A DNA stretch of 64,000 nucleotides from Harriotta raleighana (lineage: Eukaryota): contig JBNZDD010013711.1 in assembly GCA_050575255.1 (NCBI GenBank), positions 6,574,491 to 6,638,490 on the forward strand, given 5' to 3'. Numbering within the stretch: position 1 is the stretch's first letter; each line of letters opens with the position of its first letter. The position numbers and the translations under genes were made by a program. Under the pieces are notes generated by a model. The model was not told the DNA's origin and did not search any database. It worked only from the letters and a program-made list of their open reading frames with translations. Shown piece after piece: positions 5,342 to 38,889 of this stretch.

Positions 5342-6592
5342 GGTGTCCTGCAGCTCAGTGGTAGAGAACTCGTCTCGCAAGCGAGAGACCTGGGTTCAGT
5401 ACCCAGCAGGGTGAAACTTTGGGCAAGTTTCCTTACTCCAGGTGCATCTGTTTATCTAGCAGTAAGTAGGAACCCAGTTGTTAGTCGATTGGCAGATCAC
5501 TTTTCCCTGATACTGTATTTCCTTTTTTAAAAATTGGTGATTTCAATCCACTACTGTTTGTGGGACACTGCTGTGCGCAATTGGCAGCTGTGTTTCGCCC
5601 ACAAAATATACAGTCCATTCCCTTTACACTTACGGAGTCCTGTAGCTCAGTAGTTAGAGCACTCGACTTGTAGTTAGAGACCTGTGTGCGAATCCAGCCA
5701 GGTTAAGATGAAACCTTGGACAAGTTTCCATACTCCATACACCTAATGATAATTTGTCCCCAAAAAACCACAATACAGTAAAACCTCGTTTATCTGTGAC
5801 TCCATGAACCGGAAAGCCCGATGAACCGGAATCTCAAAAAAAAAGGCCCGATTCGATAAACTGGAAGTTATCCAGCAGAATAGGATGACACAGTTAATGA
5901 ATCGATTGTCACTCACTCGTGCGAGTTGAGCCTAAAGTCACGCTACTGCCGTTTTTAAAAAAAAATCATGATACTGCCTTTTTTTAAAAAAATTGCGTTA
6001 CTGCTGCTTGGTTTTCCTCCCATGGTGGCCATTGCAGAAGTTAAATATAAATAATAAAGGATTGATACAATATTCTGTTATTAGTGTATTTAGTCTATTA
6101 TTTCTATAGTATTGTTCAACATTTACAATAAAGTAACAATACAGTATTCTGTTATTACTGTATTTACTTTATTGTTTATATGGTACAGTGTACAACATTT
6201 ACAATAAAATACCCATGCAATATTGTTATTATCTGTTATTATTTAGTCTATTATTAATATGGTATATGTTTAAAAAAAATAAAAATATATACATTTAAAA
6301 AACAATGGAAAACCGTTTAACCACCACTGGCCAGGTCCCGTGGGTGCCGGATAAACAGGATTTTACTATAATAAAATTGGGCATTTCAATCCACGAGTGT
6401 TTGCAGTCAATTCACTTTACAGTATATTCTGTGAAGCGCTTTGAATCGCCTAAAAGACGTGAAAAGCGCTATATCATTGCAAGGTTTATTATTACAGTAT
6501 AGTTACTTCACAGTATATTCTGTGAAGCACTTTTAGACTTTTGTCACGCCAAAATATGATAAAGCGCTATATCAAATGCAAGAATTATTATA
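5342..6592 (+). mobile_element. Nested cluster: tRNA-derived SINE interrupted by a second SINE (5635-~6495), itself interrupted by a family-A MITE (5776-6368)
   Basis: Two tRNA-like heads (GTCCTGYAGCTCAGT; A/B boxes), two AAAGCGCTATATCA..GCAAG..TTATTAT tails, and TA-flanked CAGTAAAACC termini. Confidence 0.8.
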
Positions 6593-16194: not shown

Positions 16195-16619
16195 ATTTAT
16201 TCTTTTCATTATTTTAAATCAAATCGCCCACATATCTTTTCTGCTCTATGAATTCATTCTGAGGTGTATTACTACATACATGGGTGTTTCTTACTTTCTT
16301 TTGTTTTGTTGCAAGTGTGTAGGACTGCAAGCTTTTGATTTTGTATTGAGATTTGCCAAGTAAGTGGTGACATGTGAATGACAATATTTAATGTGCTCCA
16401 CCCAAGTGGTGCAGCTTGTACATATTCTAATACTCTTGCAGCTGGTTAAGTTGGGCACCTATTGTTACATTTAATATAGTCGCTAGTTTTGTTCACCTAG
16501 CAATGTTGGATTTGGAGGTTTGAGATGTATGTATGATTAATTTCTCCAGTGTTTTTTCCATTAATAGCATGTGCCTTCACTACACAGTCTACAGATTTCT
16601 AACCTTGGACTTTCATTAG

Positions 16620-16763
<144 letters not shown>

Positions 16764-16789
16764 TAAGTGTTCTATGTAATGTTTCCTAA

Positions 16790-19553: not shown

Positions 19554-20264
19554 GTAAGTGATTTTTGAATTTGGTCTAATGATTTCAAATCTTTACTTCA
19601 CAATTATGTATAAATTCACCAGTTTCTGATTTTAATCTGTAAAAAACAGTATCTGTTGAACCAGAGAACATGGTTTGAAAGTGGGGTAAAATGCAGGAAC
19701 ACTGTTTCAGTGAGCAAGTTGTAAAGTATGGTAGAATTTCCCTAGGAAGATGGTAGAAGCAGAAATTGTTGATTCTTTCAAAGGCAACTTAGTTAGATTT
19801 CTTTTAGGAAATAATATTGTAAGGCACAGTATATAGTATATAGTTAGGGACATGTGCATGTGACTGCCAGGACATTGGACGTCCCACTGATGTGAAAGGC
19901 GCTATACAAGTGTAATTGGAAGGCACTCCAGATGGAATTTGATCTTCTTTCACCTGGCAAATCAAAACAAAATGAATTCCCATTGTTAAAAATTCTTGCA
20001 TTTGATATAGAGCCTTAAAACATTTTTTAAGAACCTTATTTTAAAAACAATCTGATTCGACCCCCAAAAGGTGCTGACTTGCTGCCCAGCAGTCAGTCAT
20101 TTTGTAATCAAAAATGTTAAAACATCACGTGTCGAAAGCTAAAGAACAATTTGTATTTTAACATAAAACTGAATTACTCGTGTGAAAATGTTTCCACTTT
20201 CTGTGAATTGGTGGCTTTTGACACAATTTGTAAAACTACCTTCTACATACTTTCATTTTTGCAG

Positions 20265-20464
20265 CTTACCACATTGGCAAGATTGTCACGAACTATGGAG
20301 CAAAAAACGACGAAGACAGAAGCAGTCAGGAGTTGATGATGCAGCAGCACCCAAAGCTCCTCGTAAGGACACCGCTCTAAGTACGGATGATAGCCGGAAT
20401 AATACACCTCAAAGCTTGCAACTTTACCAGCATAAATCTCAGGGCAATTCTAATATAGGAATAG
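20265..20464 (+). CDS. CDK13: CDK13 exon: C-terminal kinase extension (DCHEL motif and polybasic cluster)
   Basis: ttgcag|C...ATAG|gtcagt; [36 protein letters not shown]...SQGNSNIGI; 200 nt. Confidence 0.96.
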
Positions 20465-23400
20465 GTCAGTGATTTTGCTGTTCTTTGTGAATCTTTTTCT
20501 TGTTTTCTTAATTGAGTTTCACATTAATTAATTAAAGGAAGTCGTGCAAACATGCCTTTACCGGGATCTCCATACCTTATGCATAGGGTTGCCTCCATCA
20601 GATAAATATTGGTCTTTTTTGTGATGTTCCACAATTTGCCACAAATACATTTTCCTACAATGTCACAGGGGTAAAGAATTGAGGAAAAAGATGAATTGAA
20701 ACTTGACTGGGGAATTAGAAACTGTAGTTAGGGCAAAGGTGAGTGGATCAAAGGTCTAAAAATGTCACTCATTGCGAGAGTGATGTGCATCAACTGATGT
20801 CAGAAATGAGCACTTTTATTGTGGCAGTGCTGGATGCCTAGTTATCTTAATTGTTGATTTGTTTAGTCCCAAGTATGAAAATTTTCAACAAAAAAATGTG
20901 GTCAGCCAGGTGTCTGGCCCATACAGAAACTTATCACCATGCTCAATAATATCTTAACCAAAGTGAGATTTCCATTCATCCCAGCTACACATGGAAATTC
21001 AAGAGATGTTGATTGGAATGCTATGAGCACCCTCCCTGGAGGCTGCTCATAGCATTGGGCAAGCTTGCCCAATTACTGAAGGTATTGGGCACACATAAAT
21101 GCCATGGCTAACAAAACATTAGTGTGTGTGTTGGGGTGCTGCTGGGGGCTAACCAGCTAACACCGTTGAGAGCACTGCCTGGCAAACATTACTGCTGCTT
21201 GTCCAGCTAGGACTACCCAACAAGAGGCAAAAAAATCAAAATTTAGGTTAAAAATAATTGTTTTTCAAACAAAAGGAAAAAATAATTCAATTCTATTTAT
21301 CCTGCTTTATGAATTAGACTTTGAAGTTAACTGGAGTTTAAATTAAAATGTAAGGACATTAAATGGCATCAAAGGAATGCCAAGGTTACTTTAAAAAATG
21401 AAAAGCTTTACACCCACCACAAATATTGCTCAGTCATAAAAATGTCACATATATACTAGATCAAAACTTCCTTGTGTTTCTTGTTGCTTTTTAAAATTTT
21501 AATTTCTGTCTTGTCTGTTTTCTCCCTCTCTTTCACCTATCTACTTTCACTCAAGACATTCAAGGCCTATCTCCTTTCACTCCATGGTCAGCTGATGTTA
21601 TTGTCAGTGTTTGCAAATGAAATTCCTCTTAAATCCCAGCTAACCGTACTCATGGGGAGGAGAGCTTGTCCAGCGTGTGGGATTTTGCAACTAATTGTAA
21701 TTACAATGCAGGTACTGACATTTACCAGTGTTTTTCACAAGTACCAATAAATGCTGGTACATGCATTGTAACTGTTTCAATCTCATTAGCAGAAGATAGC
21801 GAATAAGCTATCACCTGCTTGCAGGATTCAAATAATCTGAATCAAAGTTGATATCCCGGACCACTGTGAAGGTCAGTGAGGCTGCTTAGTGTGGGGTTGG
21901 CGCCCAGTAGAGAATTAGGAGTCGGGAGTTTACATGCCGCTTATGGATTCTTTTTAATTTCAGTTTGGGGCCTGATTTTGATAGGTCTGAATTCCGCATA
22001 ACCAGAGTAAGACTGGGAGAATTTTTTTTATTGGGTGGCAGAGTCTAGTGGGCATTTTAGAATTACATATGATATAAGATTAAAGTTGACACATTTATAG
22101 AGTTTTAAAATTTCACATAACTGACCAATTATACGTAAATACTTTTGAAATTCTTGGTCATCTTTTGCAGATGTCTCCTTAGTTTATAGAAATAAAAAAA
22201 ATTGAACGAGGGCTGACAAAACATTCTGTGCTTAATTTTTTTTCCCAGCTTCACAAAACATTCGCCTATTGTTTAGTAGAAACAATTAGTGCATATTTCC
22301 GCAATTATAATGCTGTTTACCAGCTGAAATTGATGGTGGGGAGAGGAGAAAAATAGAGAGGAGAAATCAGCAAGGTTGCTATTCCAAATCTATTCATCCG
22401 TTTCTGGAATGTGCATGTACAAATAACATTAGATGTTCATTTGCGCACATCATTGACGCTCTCAATGATGCTCTCAATGGTGCTCAATGCTTCATCTGCG
22501 AACACACTTGAGTATTGGTATCGAATAGTATCTTGAACCTGTATAACCATCTGCCAGTTTGCGTCTTTTCCCTTCCTACTTTACATTATGTATTGCTTGT
22601 ACCAGTGCTATATTCCACTGCAAAAGGCTGCAGCCTATTTCAAAGCCTGGAGCAGTTACTGAAAAGTTGGGCTTCCTGTTGGCATGTAGTTTTCTCTTGC
22701 ATTGCATCGTGAGTAGTATGAGAAAATGATCTCATTTTCTGCTTTCAATTATTTCATTCTTCTTGGCATACAAAGTTATTACAAGGTCAATGTGTACAAC
22801 CGAAAGGTAGTTATCTAACCACTCTTGTGCTTTGGTTTCTTGTTTCCACTTGTGTACAATGTCATTGAGGTTATCAAACTGTTTGAAACCCCTTTAAGAT
22901 AACCAGTGTTCACTACTGTTTTGTACGCATTACTTTTTTTTTAAAAGAGTGGGTGAGAGCTTTTTCTAAACACGGCTGCTCTTTTTATTTGTGAGCTAAC
23001 ACACTTCCTCTAATAAAGCTTGTGTTCTTTCTGTATTTTTTTTTGCCTTGATGAGAACAATGCCAAGCAATGGATACACATGGCATAAAGCTAAGGCAGT
23101 AATGAGGCCTATGCAAGATCACAGGGGTGTCACTCCCATTTCTATCGGTCAATCCTGAGATGCGCTGAATTCTTTAAATGCACTTTAGAACATGTTCACC
23201 TGTATATTATACACGGTGGGAGTCAGTGATATTAGTTTTGTAACTTGTCAACCTCTTTCATTTTTTGGATACAAGGTTGTGACCACCTCACATGATTTTA
23301 AATGCACCGTGTGTGTTTATTTTATTCTGTTCGGGTTGTTACTGTATTCACATCGAGTTTGATGCAGAAAAGTGATACAGTACATGGGAAGTATTTTATG

Positions 23401-23919
23401 ACCACAATACTTTCCTCCTTTTCTATTTCCTGAACTCCTTTCCAGGCATTGAAGAAACAATGCATTTTTTTCAACCTCTATTCCTTTACTGTAGCTGTGA
23501 TGCCACTGCCTGGAGTTACTCGATTTAATTTAATTAGTACAATAATTTCATATTGGACAGTAAGCTACTCCAGAGGCACCTGTCAAAGAAAGTACATTAG
23601 CTGAATGCTGCTACACATGCACTCTTACACTTTGCTTCTCTGGGATTTGGTGGCTCTGGAGAGCTCACCAGTGGATTGCCAGATTCTTTCACAAACCACA
23701 TAAATTTATAGATAAAGAAAAGTTGATTTCACAGCAGTCACACATAGAACTTGTAAATTCTTTACATTTTTTGATAATATGCCTTGTAAATATATGAGTA
23801 TTCTCTAGGTAATTGCTTGATTCTAAAACAGCATGTAGTGCACATGATTTAAAACTAAGAATTCATCAAGCCTCTTAGCCACTGCTGCGGCTCTTCTAGA
23901 TATTTTATGTGCTCATTTT

Positions 23920-24075
23920 CCCCCTCTAAATCTGAGCATTGAGGTCAATTTTTGGCAGTTGTGCTCCCTGCCTGAAATTAGACAACTCAGCACAAACTAG
24001 AGAAACCTGAGACAATCCAGGCTTTGTGTAACTCAAAGCTATTCAGCAAATAAACTTGCTGAGCTGACAGAAAAG
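23920..24075 (-). mobile_element. LF-SINE-like relic (5' part)
   Basis: Reverse strand GTGCTGAGTTGTCTAATTTCAGG...AATTGACCTCAATGCTC resembles the LF-SINE consensus as I recall it; heavily diverged. Confidence 0.5.
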
Positions 24076-27000
24076 CTGTCACAATCTGAGAATGGAAATT
24101 AAAAGATGAGTAGAATTTTTTGAAAAATGGATTAAAGATGGGCTAGGAAAGCAGTAAAATGAATTTAACAATGAAAGTAAGATGAAAGCGAATGAGCACT
24201 AATATAAAGTGTTTATTTTAATTTGAAATGATTTTAGCACTCATTTTCAATGAACAGCTAATATTATTAATAGTTTCTGACATTTGACAGCTTTATTACA
24301 GTAACAATATTTTCTGCATCATGTTACAAACTTCATGTACAGAATTCCTTGATCGAAGGGAAACTAAAGTTTGTTTAAACCATACAGAAATCTGAAAGTT
24401 GACATTTTTTACTATTAAATCTGATTTTGTAGCAAACGAAAAGTCCTCAAGTCTTGGTTGCATCAGACTCAGTTAGGTTGAAACTGTGTCGTATTAATTT
24501 ATGGTCCAGAGAAACAGATATTTGCCCCATCAAGTCATTGGTGGTATTAGCTTTTTCACCCAGGTTTTCATTTCAATCCCAATCCTCTGCTCGCTGGTAT
24601 GCCTTTTTATATTTTAAAGCTCAAAACAGAAGGACACTGCCGCCAGCTCCAAGATGAGCAAATTTATCTTTTTCTATTTTTGAGCCTCTTTCTCTCCCCT
24701 CCCCCAATACTATCCCTAAATTGTATGATCATTGAGGCTGAATTAATATTTGGTTGTTTAAAGAAAATGTTAAACTTTTTATAAAATAGGTTAGTTCGGT
24801 TAGCAGTTTGGTCCGAGTTTCTGTGCATCTCAAACACCTTGCTGAGCAAAAAAAAATCAGTTGTTCTAACTTGTGGCTCAAATTCACAAACAGTGAATTT
24901 CTGGTTACTATTTGCTTTGCTAATTCTTAGTTTACCAAAGATCCATCTGTGAGATTGCAGCAAAAAAGTGTGGAAACTAGCCAGTCCCTGTAGGGAATGA
25001 AAAAAATGTGAGGTTAATCCTTCGGTTGGTTCTGTACATCACCTCGTGGCTGAATGTAGTGAAATTGCCAATTGAAATAACCATTTCTGCCTGCCCTGAG
25101 CAGGGGATTGTTATGATTGCAGGGCACCCTGAAGTATGAAGTAACTTGCTTTTCATTCTTCCCAAATCAGCAGAAATAACAATCATTATTATCATTATCT
25201 ATAAATATCAATAAAAGCTTAATATTGAATTGACACCTCTAAATTTGGCTTATGCCTCAGCACAGCCTGAGTCTAGGGAATATAATTAATAAGTAATTTA
25301 CTTCTATTTTACAGAGCAAGGTGAAACTAGGACTACCAGAGGAAGATGTGGAAGTGCATCTACTAAACTTTTAAATAAAAAGGAAACTAACACGTTTGTG
25401 AGGCTTAAAATAAGAAAAAGGTTACCATGCTCAAGTAGAAAAGTCATCAGATCTTAATGGAATTGTGAAGCACTGTATGTCATACATTTTGGCAAAAGAA
25501 TAAAGAAAATTAAACCTAAATAGTACAGCTCTTAATATGCAACAGAGCTTTCTGGTGTGGATACATATGTTTGTTACAGGTGGGAGTGCAGGTAGAAAAA
25601 GCCATTTAAACAGGCAATTATTAAAAAATGCACATCATTTTTGTTAATTATATGGTGCCTCTGTGCAATCTGCATAAACCCATGGCTTTACAATTCCCAC
25701 TTTCCTTTTCAAACACTGGTATTCCTAACAGGCTTGCTTTATTGACTACCACTATGGCAAATGAGTGAAATGCTTCATGATTATAGGGACATATCATAGG
25801 AGCAATTGTGCTTGAAACAGTTTGTTAGCTTTTAGTCTATTTAAGCTATTGAGTAAAGGAATATCAAAATCACTTTTCCTGAAGGTCGTGATGTGCCTTA
25901 GGTTGTCGCTCCACAGTGATTCTACAGTATTCTGTGGAATTATATGTTGTATGAGCTAGAACAATAAAGAATGGTATATGTTCTACCATGGGGTTAAACA
26001 TTTACTGTTCACAGTAAGACTACATCCTGAACTCATCTCTTATCTAGCTACCGCTTTCTGCAGACATTTTTGGAGCAGGAAACCTAGGTGGTCTGTTCAT
26101 TATGCCCTCCCCCAGGATACTGAGACCAATGATAGTGGAACCAATGGTAACACCCACACTAATGCCCTAGATTTGAAAAGAATAAATGATTCATGCAGAT
26201 AATCCTTTGCAAATTAAGGCTTTGATATCCTTTCTTCTCCCCTCTCTTAAGATATGATTTGATAAGTGCTGAGATTCCAGTATCACACAGAAGTATCTTC
26301 TCTTCCCATGTGATCCCGAACTTGAGTTATATTTACCTATATGGGACATCACTACTGGAACTCGCCAATTCCTGTTTGTGTCCTTTTCAACAAGGTTATC
26401 TAGTGGTAGCTCTGAATGGGAACCATGGCAGGAAGTTTTTCTAAATCTTTAGCACTCCCAGCTCACCCAAAGAAAAGTGCTGGCCTACTTTAATAACACT
26501 GCCCTTATTTGAGTGATATTCAATGACTAAGCACTTTAGGTTCAGTCCAGACACATTTACATTTGTAAATAATTATCTGAATGTTTAGGAATGCTTCACT
26601 CCTAGGAATGTTTAGGAGTGACTCATAATTTTATATTTCAAAAATTGACATGTATATCTCAAGGATACTCAAGGATATCTCAAGGATAGGGCGTAGCCAC
26701 TGTACATCTGGTTACTTTTGGTTCTAAAACTTAAAAACTTAAAACTTAAAAACTTAAAAGTTAAAAGCTTTTTTTAATGACCATAAATATTTTGTTTTTA
26801 TTTAGACTTTGTACCCATTTCTTGTAAAGTTCCATCATTCCTTAGTTGAATTTAAACATGATTTTTTATGTCCTATCTCATCCTTCCCTGATCAGGTTTG
26901 ATTCCTTTTTCCTTGGCCAAGGCTTCTCTGGATGCCCTTGGGCATTTTGCTTAATGTAGACGTTATACATTGATCATGATGACAGCAGATTATTTGATTG

Positions 27001-27347
27001 GGCGGAACATCATGGTCAAGTCTGGCTCTGTCCTTCCAGAACATTTGTGCAATCGCAGTTTACAGGTGTGGGGTGGTCTCAGGACAGTGATCAGTAACTC
27101 TGTTTTTTCCTTCCCTCATGACAATTGTAGCACCGATTGTTGCTTCTGCAATCAAACCAATAGCTTCCTGATTTAATGTTGCACTGGGGCAGTGCTTTTG
27201 TGGACTAGGCTAATGGGGAGCTTCTTAAAATGGATATCTGTCGACAAATTTTTTATTATCTTTCATTTTCTCTTTTATATCTAAATCTAGTAATTAATTA
27301 GCTATTATGTTATGCAGCTATTAATTTTGATGTTGCTATTTCTGCAG

Positions 27348-27836
27348 GCGCTAAAGGCACTGGACAGCAACTGAACCAGAATGACCTGGCTATTCTGATC
27401 AACCTGCTTCAGTCTAAGAATAGTCTTAGTCTGGGCCACCTTGCTCAAGTACTGAATATTAAAATGAATCCTGAGACTCAGCAGCAACTCAGCACAGTTA
27501 ACCTCCCAGCTGGAGTTCTGGCAGCCGCTGCCAAGCAGCAGCAACAAAAAGAGGTCCCGAAATCACAACTCGTCACGCCTTCTGTGCCAGCCCAGCCACC
27601 ACCACTCCCACCACCCCCCCCGCTCCCTCCTGTAGTCCAGCCGCCGCAGACAAAGACTGAGCCAGACACTGCCCAAGCAGCCATCCAGAGCGCACTTGCT
27701 GTGTTACTGACTCAGCTGATCAAGAAACAGCAACCACAAGGCAAAGAACCAGTCCTAGAGAAGGACAGTGCTGTGGTGGATATTGAGGTGCCTATTCAGC
27801 CTCCGGAACCACTTGAACCTGCCCTGACTGTATCTG
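27348..27836 (+). CDS. CDK13: CDK13 penultimate exon, Q/P/A-rich
   Basis: ctgcag|GC...TCTG|gtatgt; GAKGTGQQLNQNDLAILINLLQSKNSLSLGHLAQVLNIKMNPETQQQLSTVNLPAGVL...poly-Pro...; 489 nt, phase 1-1. Confidence 0.93.
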
Positions 27837-27912
27837 GTATGTTGCACCGTAGTTAATTTAGCAAAAAAAGTTCTAGAAATTATTTATCTAAAACATTTGG
27901 ATAATAATTATA

Positions 27913-30280: not shown

Positions 30281-32800
30281 TTATAAACCAGACCTATAGC
30301 ACACCGGAATGATAAACAACTGGGTTGTCCTCTCTATAGTTGTGGTTTGTACCAGGATTTTTTTTTAATGTATGCTGTACATTTGAATACAAATGCAGAT
30401 GTTATTAAATTTGGCAGGTTTGAAACATATTCAATTACAAAATTGATTTCTACCATGTAGGGAAGCAACAAAGAAAACTCTTGGCTTCTTCTCATGAGCT
30501 GTTCTTTTCCTTGTCCTTGTTTCTATAATTCTGATTTTTGAAAATTATATTTTGATTGTGCATCATATTTCCCATTTGATAGGTTATGCCTGTGTCTATT
30601 ATAGCAGTTTCGAGATGAACAGCATTTCTAGACTAATCAACTATTAAGACATTTGTTGCTGAACATTGACAAAACCATAACGAGTTTAGCCATACGTCTT
30701 TACATTAAGCAATTCTATAGGTTTGGACCAACTGTCTTCTGTGAGCTGCTGAGTTTTGCAAGGCTCTTAGGTAGTGTGCTTTCTTATATTTTTCTTATGA
30801 CTATTGGCAGATAACTAACTGTCAGATCTTAAGTGTAATGTTATTGCAGGAAATGTGAGTATGCGCATTGTACCTGCACTAAAAACATCAGTGTGGTTTA
30901 CCTTATTTATAAAATGGAGACCGCAAGTATTTGGTCATTTTTTTGAAGTCAAATGAGAAGATTTGAGTAAAATACATGCAAACTGAAACTGTTGCCTTGT
31001 TTTGTACTTTTATCAGACAATTCTTACTAAAAACAAAGAAATATAAAAATGTAGCAAACATTTGATTATTTCAGTGTTTGTCATAAATCTTTGTAATCAT
31101 TCATTTGGCTAGTTTAATTCTACCTGCTTTTTGAAATAAACTGAAATAATGCGTTTTGTTACAGAAATTTTTTTTGAGTGGATTTAAGCTAGATTTGGAA
31201 ACAGGGTGGTTGAGACGTGTACAAGTTGGTGAGTTTGGCATCATACATTGGATGTTGTCTTTTGTCTGCAATGGTTGAAACAAAAAATATTACCACTGCC
31301 TCTAAGAGTGTTGCAGGACAGTTATTCAGTCTTCAATTTACTTGAGTTTTATTCTTCTTTGTAATGTCTTCTTACTGCCTTGCAGTTCTTTTAGAAGTAT
31401 CCAATAAATAATTCAACGTCATCAACATTATCAGAGGGAAACCATAATGGAAAAACTAACAAGTGAGTACAGTGGGTATTAATTCTGGCATATTTTAACA
31501 TTCTCTGTATCTTAAGAATTCTTGGTATTTTTTCAAAAAAAATTTGCTCTAAAGGAGCAGAAAAGAGAATTCAAACCATTTTTGTAATTATTACAGCAAT
31601 ATGAATTGAAACCCAAGTTCCATCACACAGTTAGAAAGTGGCCCAAATGACTTGAATTCTCAGGTGTGGGGTGGGTGGGGAGTATTTGATTTTCATGAGA
31701 GTATAAGGCTTCCACAGAGATTGGTACATTTTAGGCCAGCACATGATCAAGATGAAATGCACAGGTCTGCTTTACATTGTAATGTTCAATGCATAATTTC
31801 TACCATCAGGCTATATAAAGACATTGAACACTTCATTTTAGCGTCATATGTTAAACTTTAAACACTGATACTTTACACTTGTTTACCCTTTTTTTTAAAA
31901 AAAAGGTCCCAAATAAACCAGTGATTTTTTTTGTCACAGCTGGTAAGCTTGCTGAAAATATCACTTGATGTGTTACAAAGCAACTGTATCTTGTTGTGGC
32001 TTAAAATAAATACGTGAATCATAATGGTTTCTAATTTGTGGATCTTACAGTAAAGGTAAATATAAAATCATACCCATGTTGATTTTCACTGCAGTTTCAA
32101 AACATTAGAGAATGTTGCACTTGATGGGGTAGGGGACTGGAAGGCATGTGTGTTGAGATGATTGGTGATAGAGATTTCTTGTAAAGTTGAGTAATTTTTA
32201 TTAGGTCTTTTTCACTGGCAGATAATCCAGTTCAATTCAGAGTTACAGTTCAAAATCTTGTTTAAAACAAATGGACATTTTGAATTTCAGTGTTGCTGCT
32301 CTATTTCCTGTGCCCGCACTATTGCCTTTAATGCATATAATAAAGATCTCAGGTGCCCAGCCAATACTGGATATATTTATTGTGATGAAATATTGCTGTC
32401 CTGTACAGTAACCATTACTGTTACACGTGTGCAAATTGAGTTCTGTACTTTTGTCTCACATGCACAAAAGGTACAAGGTAGAAATCATTCCAAAATTACA
32501 ATACACTTGGGATAAATGGGTGTATTCATATTTCAGTGAAAACCCAGGTGTAAAATGCTCACCTTCCCAGCTTAAATCAGTTGTGTTTATTGTGTTTATT
32601 TTCAAATTCAGAGATGTTTTTTGTTGGCCTACTTCATCTCCACCTACAAAAAAAAACAAAAAGATATTTATACTGTAATATGTTCTATGAATACTATGGC
32701 CTTTTCAAAAAGTTTCATGTAATTTGTTAAATTGAATTCTGGCATTGTAATTTTGTATGGATCTGTAAATAAAGATGGAGATTAATTTCTGCAGAACCCC
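30281..32800 (+). other. CDK13: CDK13 3' UTR (end inferred)
   Basis: AT-rich and free of recognisable TEs; AATAAA at 31135, 31403, 31912, 32005, 32339, 32768; TE fragments resume at ~33050. Confidence 0.6.
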
Positions 32801-36959: not shown

Positions 36960-37275
36960 GTAACACGGTATCTCCACTGGGTGTCGCCACAGCCTCGGGT
37001 CCGGGTTGATTGACAGGTGGTGACGGCCAGATCTGCTCGGTGCTGTTGTCATTTCCGTCGGGTCGGTCGGGTCGGGATGAGGTGTTTACCGGCGCTGAGG
37101 CTTCTGCGTTTCTCATGGTCTCGGTGGGGACCGGCACCGGGGGGGAGCCGCAGGCCGCTCAGCAGCGCTCCGCCGCTGTCAGGTACAAACCCCGCGGGAC
37201 CCGCTTGTCAAAGGGGAGAGAAACAAGCCTGAACACCGAGGCCTCAAGTCCCCAACAGGACCCGCCAACAGGGGC
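36960..37275 (+). promoter_or_regulatory. CpG-island-like promoter and first-exon region of SUGCT
   Basis: One of very few non-repeat GC/CpG-rich stretches in the window; surrounds ATG 37077; ETS-like TTTCCG at ~37052. Confidence 0.65.
37077..37182 (+). CDS. SUGCT: SUGCT exon 1 (mitochondrial targeting peptide)
   Basis: gggATG; [35 protein letters not shown] is Arg/Leu/Ser-rich with no acidic residues; TCAG|gtacaa donor, phase 1, matching exon 2. Confidence 0.8.
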
Positions 37276-37277
37276 AT

Positions 37278-38340
37278 GAGCGGATACAGGGGCAGGGACA
37301 GGAGCGGATACAGGGGCAGGGACAGGAGCGGATACAGGGGCAGGTACAGGGACAGGAGCGGATACAGGGGCAGGGACAGGAGCGGATACAGGTGCAGGTC
37401 CAGGAGTGGGTACAGGGGCAGGGGCAGGAGCGGATACAGGGGCAGGTACAGGGACAGGAGCGGGTACAGGGGCAGGGACAGGAGCGGATACAGGGGCAGG
37501 TACAGGGACAGGAGCGGATACAGGGGCAGGGACAGGAGCGGATACAGGGGCAGGTACAGGGACAGGAGCGGATACAGGGGCAGGGACAGGAGCGGATACA
37601 GGGGCAGGTACAGGGACAGGAGCGGATACAGGGGCAGGGACAGGAGCGGATACAGGGGCAGGTACAGGGACAGGAGCGGATACAGGGGCAGGGACAGGAG
37701 CGGATACAGGGGCAGGTACAGGGACAGGAGCGGATACAGGGGCAGGGACAGGAGCGGATACAGGGGCAGGTACAGGGACAGGAGCGGATACAGGGGCAGG
37801 GACAGGAGCGGATACAGGGGCAGGTACAGGGACAGGAGCGGATACAGGTGCAGGTCCAGGAGTGGGTACAGGGGCGGGTACAGGGGCAAGTACAGGGGCG
37901 GGTACAGGGATGGATACAGGGGCGGGTACAGGGGCAAGTACAGGGGCGGGTACAGGGATGGGTACAGGGGCGGGTACAGGGGCAGGTACAGGGGCAGGAG
38001 CAGGTACAGGAGCGGATACGGGTACAGGAGCGGATACAGGCGCGGGTACAGGGATGGGTACAGGAGCAGGAGCGTGTACATTGAGCGGATACAGGGGCAG
38101 GTACAGGGGTGGGTACAGGGGCAGGAGCAGGTTCAGGAGCGGATACAGGGGCAGGTACAGGTCTGGGTACAGGAGCAGGGGCAGGAGCAGGCACAGTGGT
38201 GGGTACAGGGGCAGGAGCGGATACAAGAGCAGGTACGGGGGCGGGTACAGGAGTAGGAGCGGGGGCAGGAGCAGGTACAGGGGCATGTGCAGGGGAAAGA
38301 GTGGGTATAGGAGCGGATACAGGGGCAGGAGCAGGTATGG
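37278..38340 (+). repeat. G-rich minisatellite in SUGCT intron 1: 6-nt NNCAGG subunits with a 24+30=54-nt higher-order unit
   Basis: GACAGGAGCGGATACAGGGGCAGG alternates with GACAGGAGCGGATACAGGGGCAGGTACAGG; homogeneous to ~37850 and degenerate afterwards. Confidence 0.97.
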
Positions 38341-38889
38341 GGGCAACAACAAAATTACATTTATAGAAGTGCCTTTCACGTCGGGAGGACAGTGTGACAT
38401 GGGGGCAGAAGCGTCAGGGGAGGGGCGGGGGGAAGGGCAGGAGTGGCAGGGGCAGGGAGGCAGGAGGGGCAAGGGAGGACGGGACAGGGATATGGCAGCA
38501 CAGCGCAGCATGGGACAGGGCAGCACAGTTTACTGACATTACACCGTGTAATACTGACCACCTCAGTAATACAGAGTAATATTGACTACCTCAGTAATTT
38601 TGAGTTACACTGACCATTGCAATAAAATAGTTTAGAGTAACAGACCACTTCAATAATGTAGAGTAATAGTGACCACATCTATAATATAGAAAAATAATAT
38701 AGAACAAGATAATGTGTAACACAGGTAAATTTATATAAAATATAACACATAATATAGCAAAAATTGAACAACAATGTGTAACACAGCAAAGATTTATTAT
38801 ATAATTAAAACATTTATTATATCTAATAGTTAATAACTAATAATTAATACATTTTAATCTAATAATACATAATGTGTACAACAGCAATA

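Follow-up and report, generated by a model that had tools for sequence, protein, structure and literature searches.

The window, a 64,000-nt stretch of Harriotta raleighana DNA taken here in its entirety, contains most of the CDK13 gene. Because 11 CDK13 exons have fixed places in the window and three more lie upstream, the interval 20465-27347 is numbered intron 12 (6.9 kb). The exon that precedes this intron encodes 66 amino acids at 100% identity to the CDK13 protein of Callorhinchus milii (P0001), and the remaining exons mostly match that protein at approximately 78-100%. The last junction of the gene is 27836/29400. The solved structures of CDK12 and CDK13 have chains that terminate inside exon 12, so that a product cut after this exon would retain the crystallised kinase module, in agreement with the original prediction that a short CDK13 would keep its whole kinase; such a product would be expected to have kinase activity. 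The paralog CDK12 lies on a separate contig, where the equivalent intron measures 939 nt. The features of intron 12 and its flanking exons are listed in Table 1.

Table 1. Positions in the window of exons 12 and 13 of CDK13 and of sequence features in and around intron 12.
Feature	Position	Strand	Basis
CDK13 exon 12 (DCHEL/KKRRR kinase extension)	20265..20464	+	identity to Callorhinchus milii, fixed junctions, ends of solved chains
Alternative in-frame donor CTC/GTAAGG, 102 nt inside exon 12	20363..20368	+	sequence; shark and ray isoforms
Main donor GTCAGT, non-consensus at +3; reading on into the intron meets an in-frame TGA at 20470-20472	20465..20472	+	fixed junction
Second pseudo-exon candidate, purine-rich, 70 nt, with 65-nt AG-free run, AAG/GTGAGT and stop at codon 5	20669..20738	+	matrix score
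Repeat-free single-copy part of intron 12, contains the candidate	21900..27347	.	genome-wide similarity search
AG-free pyrimidine-rich run and acceptor CAG	22558..22605	+	possible branch A at 22583 (-23); matrix score
Candidate hidden exon of 103 nt, open for 35 codons	22606..22708	+	sequence; without protein relative
Donor-like GTGAGT overlapping TGA 22710-22712	22709..22714	+	sequence
Three TGTA motifs (22793, 22853, 22922)	22793..22925	+	sequence
AATAAA followed by a T-rich tract; probable latent poly(A) site of the intron	23012..23045	+	sequence, downstream T/G content
CDK13 exon 13	27348..27836	+	fixed junctions; out-of-frame TAA 27352-27354

Four further features of the window were recorded. 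The segment 16013-16194 is a tandem, partial copy of 16537-16768: it repeats the acceptor of the activation-loop exon and the 60 nt that follow, with two residues altered. It is followed by a GTRAGT at 16359/16360 and could be a decoy or poison exon. Part of the CDK13 3' UTR (30941-31195) has a 98%-identical rearranged copy on another contig (L071:1551-1847), a short inverted piece included. Downstream of the gene, 37099-38536 is a tandem repeat, rich in GC, in which both strands carry long open frames. The tRNA-like match at 5344-5414 in intron 4 falls within a high-copy repeat and is probably the head of a SINE.

Two donors would compete for the 3' end of exon 12. RefSeq isoforms of eight shark and ray species (17 pairs compared) lack exactly the last 34 residues of this exon, and the corresponding donor, 20362/20363, is presumably used in Harriotta raleighana as well. 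This 34-residue difference was rejected as a counterpart of the candidate hidden exon at 22606, since it corresponds to the final 102 nt of exon 12. Among the 34 residues is a TPQ site whose threonine is reported to be phosphorylated in human CDK13 (T1058). The GQ-stop that would end a reading through the main donor also ends 17 of 25 non-teleost-type short CDK13 ORFs (skate-, bird- and mammal-type, with taxa assigned by likeness where an ORF has no name). With a conserved weak donor and an annotated alternative donor, the 5' end of intron 12 looks regulated.

The original prediction had marked a hidden exon further inside the intron, one that might act either as an alternative last exon or as a poison cassette. 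All of its parts were recovered where it had put them. In the phase left by exon 12 the frame stays open for 35 codons up to the TGA, coordinates and translation alike; this stop overlaps the C/GTGAGT at 22709; and the TGTA motifs, the AATAAA (23012-23017) and a T-rich tract follow, the AATAAA being a motif 304 nt 3' of the candidate donor. The frameshift that had been anticipated was reproduced as well: joined to 27348, the 103-nt exon runs into the out-of-frame stop of exon 13, 482 nt before the last junction. Inclusion of the exon, if it is spliced, would consequently bring in a stop that precedes a later junction by over 50 nt, which is the criterion for NMD. The pyrimidine-rich, AG-free run said to precede the acceptor held up with one qualification. 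There are indeed 46 nt free of AG (22558-22603) before the AG at 22604-22605, but the strong pyrimidine stretch lies about 24-42 nt upstream of that AG and the adjoining 20 nt are only 60% pyrimidine. The 22606-23045 element is single copy in the genome, which rules out an origin as a retrocopy or repeat. A search of sequencing runs with 20200-27900 as the query listed no RNA run with this sequence, an outcome that is neutral as to expression; so long a query lowers the proportion of words that a relative can share.

Splice-site strength was evaluated with home-built matrices derived from 22 true CDK12 and CDK13 junctions of the same genome (a 23rd junction was doubtful and left out). On these matrices, which rest on 22 sites, ignore position dependence and undervalue perfect GTRAGT donors, the acceptor at 22606 scored 3.2 bits (82nd of the 397 AG in intron 12) and the donor at 22709 scored 2.2 bits (87th of the 364 GT), versus 12.0 bits for the true acceptor at 27348. 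When set against the 22 true sites by leave-one-out scoring, the candidate acceptor fell below all but one and the candidate donor below all; four true donors in the CDK12/CDK13 set also have no G at -1. As a pair, the two sites rank 501st among the 4,094 pairs of intron 12 that are 50-250 nt apart, and pseudo-exon 20669-20738 reaches 14.9 bits vs 5.4 bits for 22606-22708 on the same matrix. The motif GTRAGT occurs just twice in the 6.9-kb intron, the candidate donor being one of these. Of 635 comparable acceptors, 29% are likewise followed by 35 open codons.

We also asked how often the whole arrangement would be expected by chance. In 528 kb of strand around the gene, an acceptor, a GTRAGT and any AATAAA within 500 nt were found together for 6 of 188 GTRAGT, against 8.9 expected, and this loose composite should arise by chance approximately 0.5 times in 29 kb of gene strand. 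When a G/T-rich tract and TGTA were made further requirements, two composites were found in the same 528 kb against 0.64 expected; the chance expectation is then about 0.04 for one gene and 0.16 for one window, figures to be read in light of thresholds that were chosen post hoc and a window that was itself picked by a pattern-seeking reader. The composite pattern does pick out real exons, because two of the eight hits at loose thresholds are true exons and one more is a duplicated true acceptor. Overall, the composite is uncommon yet within reach of chance; its poly(A) signal is good and its splice sites are ordinary.

The poly(A) signal is the strongest part of the arrangement. Only 2-4 of the 602 AATAAA examined are as T- or G/T-rich at +1 to +30 as the one at 23012 (top 1%); in windows further downstream, 59 of 602 are equal or richer at +16 to +45 and 227 of 602 at +21 to +50, where it is average. 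At least three TGTA in the 250 nt upstream were found for 89 of the 602. Within the CDK13 introns of the window, AATAAA 23012 is the sole one with a G/T content of at least 0.7 just downstream, and it has the best downstream context of the nine AATAAA in intron 12, in a sequence where such hexamers occur about once per kb. The interval 22501-23000 has a T-over-A skew of 0.21 and holds seven TGTA.

The intron around the candidate is itself unusual. A search of the genome with 21900-27347 (5,448 nt) returned two candidate matches, vs 25,146 for a CDK13 intron of the same length that served as the one control, and a single 39-nt match lies elsewhere. Judged by this similarity search, as opposed to a repeat library, the stretch qualifies as a transposon-free region (at least 5 kb without transposon sequence), a class that has been linked to regulatory loci in the available text of PMC2241635. 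Locally, in a 264-kb region with 44% repeat coverage and 324 repeat-free gaps, no gap is longer than 21057-27894, and the last exon together with its 3' UTR forms the second-longest. Intron 12 is 2% covered by local repeats, vs 20-57% for eight other CDK13 introns. Old repeats lie at 20890-21221 and 21652-21889, so that in the genome-wide comparison they reach as far as 21889, and the repeat-free zone continues for 4.3 kb beyond AATAAA 23012. Being so unusually free of repeats, intron 12 may hold real regulatory sequence.

Searches for relatives of the element covered proteins, the paralog, other assemblies and RNA families. A word search with the 35-residue peptide returned no relatives, and its two phmmer matches among 1.84 billion representatives were rejected as unrelated tandem-repeat proteins. 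Apart from those two, the peptide has no match among 382 collected proteins, CDK12 and CDK13 included, a set that drew on the best 120 of 955 longer matches, the best 120 of 347 near-length matches and 116 of the 212 members of 10 other vertebrate clusters; it follows exon 12 in none of the 47 members of 10 cartilaginous-fish clusters. A conserved coding alternative last exon with a new C-terminus was thus not found in the relatives represented by these 47 cluster members and 382 proteins, sets in which a form destroyed by NMD could not appear. The CDK12 locus, including its 939-nt intron, has no similarity to the 22606 element. None of 40 loci on metagenome contigs matched the element, and the two teleost CDK13-type loci carry less than 400 nt of intron; no orthologous intron was found in prokaryote genome contigs, and viral contigs gave one weak locus. 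As for structured RNA, no Rfam family matches the intron at gathering score, the matches that were returned being at chance level (E 4.2 and 4.6), and the element has no stable fold (z 0.37). Decayed coding sequence in intron 12 was likewise rejected, with no Pfam match in 11 of 12 frames and one at E 0.013, below the cut-off.

The collected sequences contained several other departures, at this junction and elsewhere. Two white shark CDK13 isoforms (P0134, P0136) have 27 residues inserted in frame between exons 12 and 13, a cassette that looks to us like the end of a CR1-type retroelement. Gene models of a bat, a camel and a coelacanth have divergent stretches at the same junction. For human and chimpanzee CDK13, annotated short forms (P0160, P0168) diverge in their tail past the ELAQLELI exon, which would fit an alternative last exon at an earlier point in the kinase. 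In invertebrate-type CDK12/13 frames (L038, L039, P0374-P0381), a stop about 10-45 residues past KKRRR, which may be a true end or intron read-through, resembles the end of the predicted short product.

The reading that we favor, with about an even chance of being correct, is that 22606-22708 is a cryptic pseudo-exon, normally skipped, beside a latent intronic poly(A) site at 23012. Nearly all splicing of exon 12 would join 20464, or the in-frame donor at 20362, to the strong acceptor 27348; the weak acceptor 22606 and the GTGAGT 22709 would resemble splice sites by chance, as hundreds of sequences in the intron do. U1 and processive elongation are established to keep intronic poly(A) sites silent in general, and the AATAAA at 23012 would be no exception, firing at a low level at most unless these controls fail. 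A different constraint would likely account for the lack of repeats, for instance on regulatory DNA or on how the weak donor of exon 12 is spliced.

We consider it doubtful, though the strongest of the competing readings, that the acceptor at 22606 is real. Use of the donor at 22709 would then yield a frameshifted NMD target, whereas cleavage near 23035 would yield a short CDK13 that keeps the entire kinase and ends in the 35-residue tail, the ratio between the two being set by U1 binding and CDK12/13 activity. Every part of this arrangement is present, in the right order and at the right spacing, the composite at moderate thresholds is uncommon at its roughly 0.04 per gene, the poly(A) context near the hexamer is strong, the setting is repeat-free, and the short protein would keep the crystallised module. 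The same arrangement has been published for human candidate events (available text of PMC13187750), and premature polyadenylation of human CDK13 under THZ531 appears in supplementary data (PMC6465371). Nevertheless, the indirect evidence on the hidden exon leans against its use: the splice sites score as weak on the small matrices, with a higher-scoring poison candidate nearby at 20669-20738, the tail occurs in no annotated or assembled protein searched, CDK12 has no similar element and the regulated human CDK13 sites lie in other introns. The NMD-escape event of human CDK12 at chr17:39530604 presumably falls in the last exon of that gene and not in the counterpart intron. Autoregulation of CDK13 through the hidden exon, which we infer at every step, takes up a minor share of this reading and is in itself very improbable.

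Less probable again, and in our judgment unlikely, is that the poly(A) site is real and works without a hidden acceptor. With the weak main donor of exon 12 sometimes unused, translation would end two codons into the intron at TGA 20470-20472, and a 2.6-kb 3' UTR would extend to about 23035, giving a kinase-only CDK13. The donor GTCAGT is indeed non-consensus and is rivalled by the upstream donor annotated in eight elasmobranch species, the same GQ-stop recurs in 17 of the 25 short ORFs, and 23012 has the best downstream context of the intron's nine AATAAA. However, the recurrence of the GQ-stop is largely due to constraint on the donor sequence, and the ORFs may derive from genomic contigs. 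Between the donor and the site lie two other AATAAA (21746 and 22191) as well as the old repeats at 20890-21221 and 21652-21889, the repeat-free zone runs on for 4.3 kb past the site, and the isoform is unannotated in the cartilaginous-fish CDK13 sets.

A third alternative, to which we give a low probability, treats 22500-23100 as a constrained non-coding element (an enhancer or a cluster of RNA-protein binding sites) or as the 3' end of a separate intronic transcript, the likeness to an exon being incidental. The single-copy, repeat-free character of the stretch, with such regions tied to regulatory loci (available text of PMC2241635), and the T-over-A skew and seven TGTA of 22501-23000 agree with it, but the intron has neither a match at Rfam gathering score nor a stable fold at the element. 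The most ambitious reading, that the intron is an ancient feedback switch in which low CDK12/13 activity acts through the weak donor and the 23012 site to give a kinase-only, NMD-escaping CDK13 (by way of the 22606 exon or of read-through) and high activity leaves the donor bound by U1 and gives an NMD target, with the repeat-free intron as its footprint, strikes us as very improbable.

Next to the favored reading of a skipped pseudo-exon and a latent site, the repeat-free intron and the conserved weak donor lean slightly toward something regulated here, not toward 22606 specifically. The firmer lead is intron 12 itself, with its repeat-free sequence, conserved weak donor and alternative donor annotated in sharks and rays. 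What stands at present is an arrangement of motifs in one fish genome. Should the exon and the site be used, a suppressor of intronic polyadenylation would carry such a site in its own gene, at the single point where its kinase stays whole; if true, this would offer a direct test of CDK12/13 self-regulation and would bear on inhibitor design.

In the literature searched, which omits most subscription journals, there is no description of this CDK13 event. The available text of PMC7190357 and of bioRxiv 10.64898/2026.05.15.725461 makes no mention of autoregulation or feedback, and CDK13 is absent from the available supplements of PMC11632617 and PMC8091538. The hidden exon invites comparison with three known systems and with regulated sites in human CDK13 itself. 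Genes for SR proteins contain ultraconserved autoregulatory poison exons, which are defined by deep sequence conservation. CDK13 resembles them as an RNA-processing regulator gene with a putative frameshifting cassette in a repeat-poor intron.

The closest published arrangement couples a poison exon to a poly(A) site in the intron behind it, with escape from NMD; 451 human candidate events are described, and VRK3, NFX1, TM2D3 and DDX31 are cases of the kind (available text of PMC13187750). The likeness lies in a stop-bearing cassette, a donor and a poly(A) site in the downstream intron, with three possible products. Two differences separate the systems: the human cases rest on junction and poly(A) reads, while the CDK13 arrangement is one of sequence motifs, and the CDK13 stop overlaps the donor, so that its poison effect would come by frameshift, which the published definition excludes (PMC13187750). 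In the main text (other than one reference) and one supplement of that paper, CDK13 is unnamed and CDK12 is listed, with an event that begins at chr17:39530604. If real, the hidden exon would belong to a class of NMD-escape switches that is already known.

Intronic polyadenylation of human CDK13 shares with the candidate the gene, the presence of regulated intronic sites and sensitivity as a THZ531 target (PMC5928244; PMC6465371, as far as their available files go). All six atlas rows for human CDK13 in the PMC5928244 file, which covers differentially used sites only, fall at retained coding fractions of 0.27 and 0.45; those sites, with 27% or 45% of the coding region kept, lie in earlier introns and lose the kinase. 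Supplement 10 of PMC6465371 lists human CDK13 as a gene with premature polyadenylation under THZ531 and gives no position. The 23012 site, by comparison, would keep about 70% of the coding region (residue 1034 of 1489 in P0121), the whole kinase included.

A further known class comprises the cryptic pseudo-exons and latent intronic poly(A) sites that U1 keeps silent. The candidate resembles such U1-silenced pseudo-exons in being a weak splice pair among thousands in a long intron where AATAAA occurs about once per kb. It differs from the usual latent sites in the better poly(A) context at 23012 and in the repeat-free intron that surrounds it.
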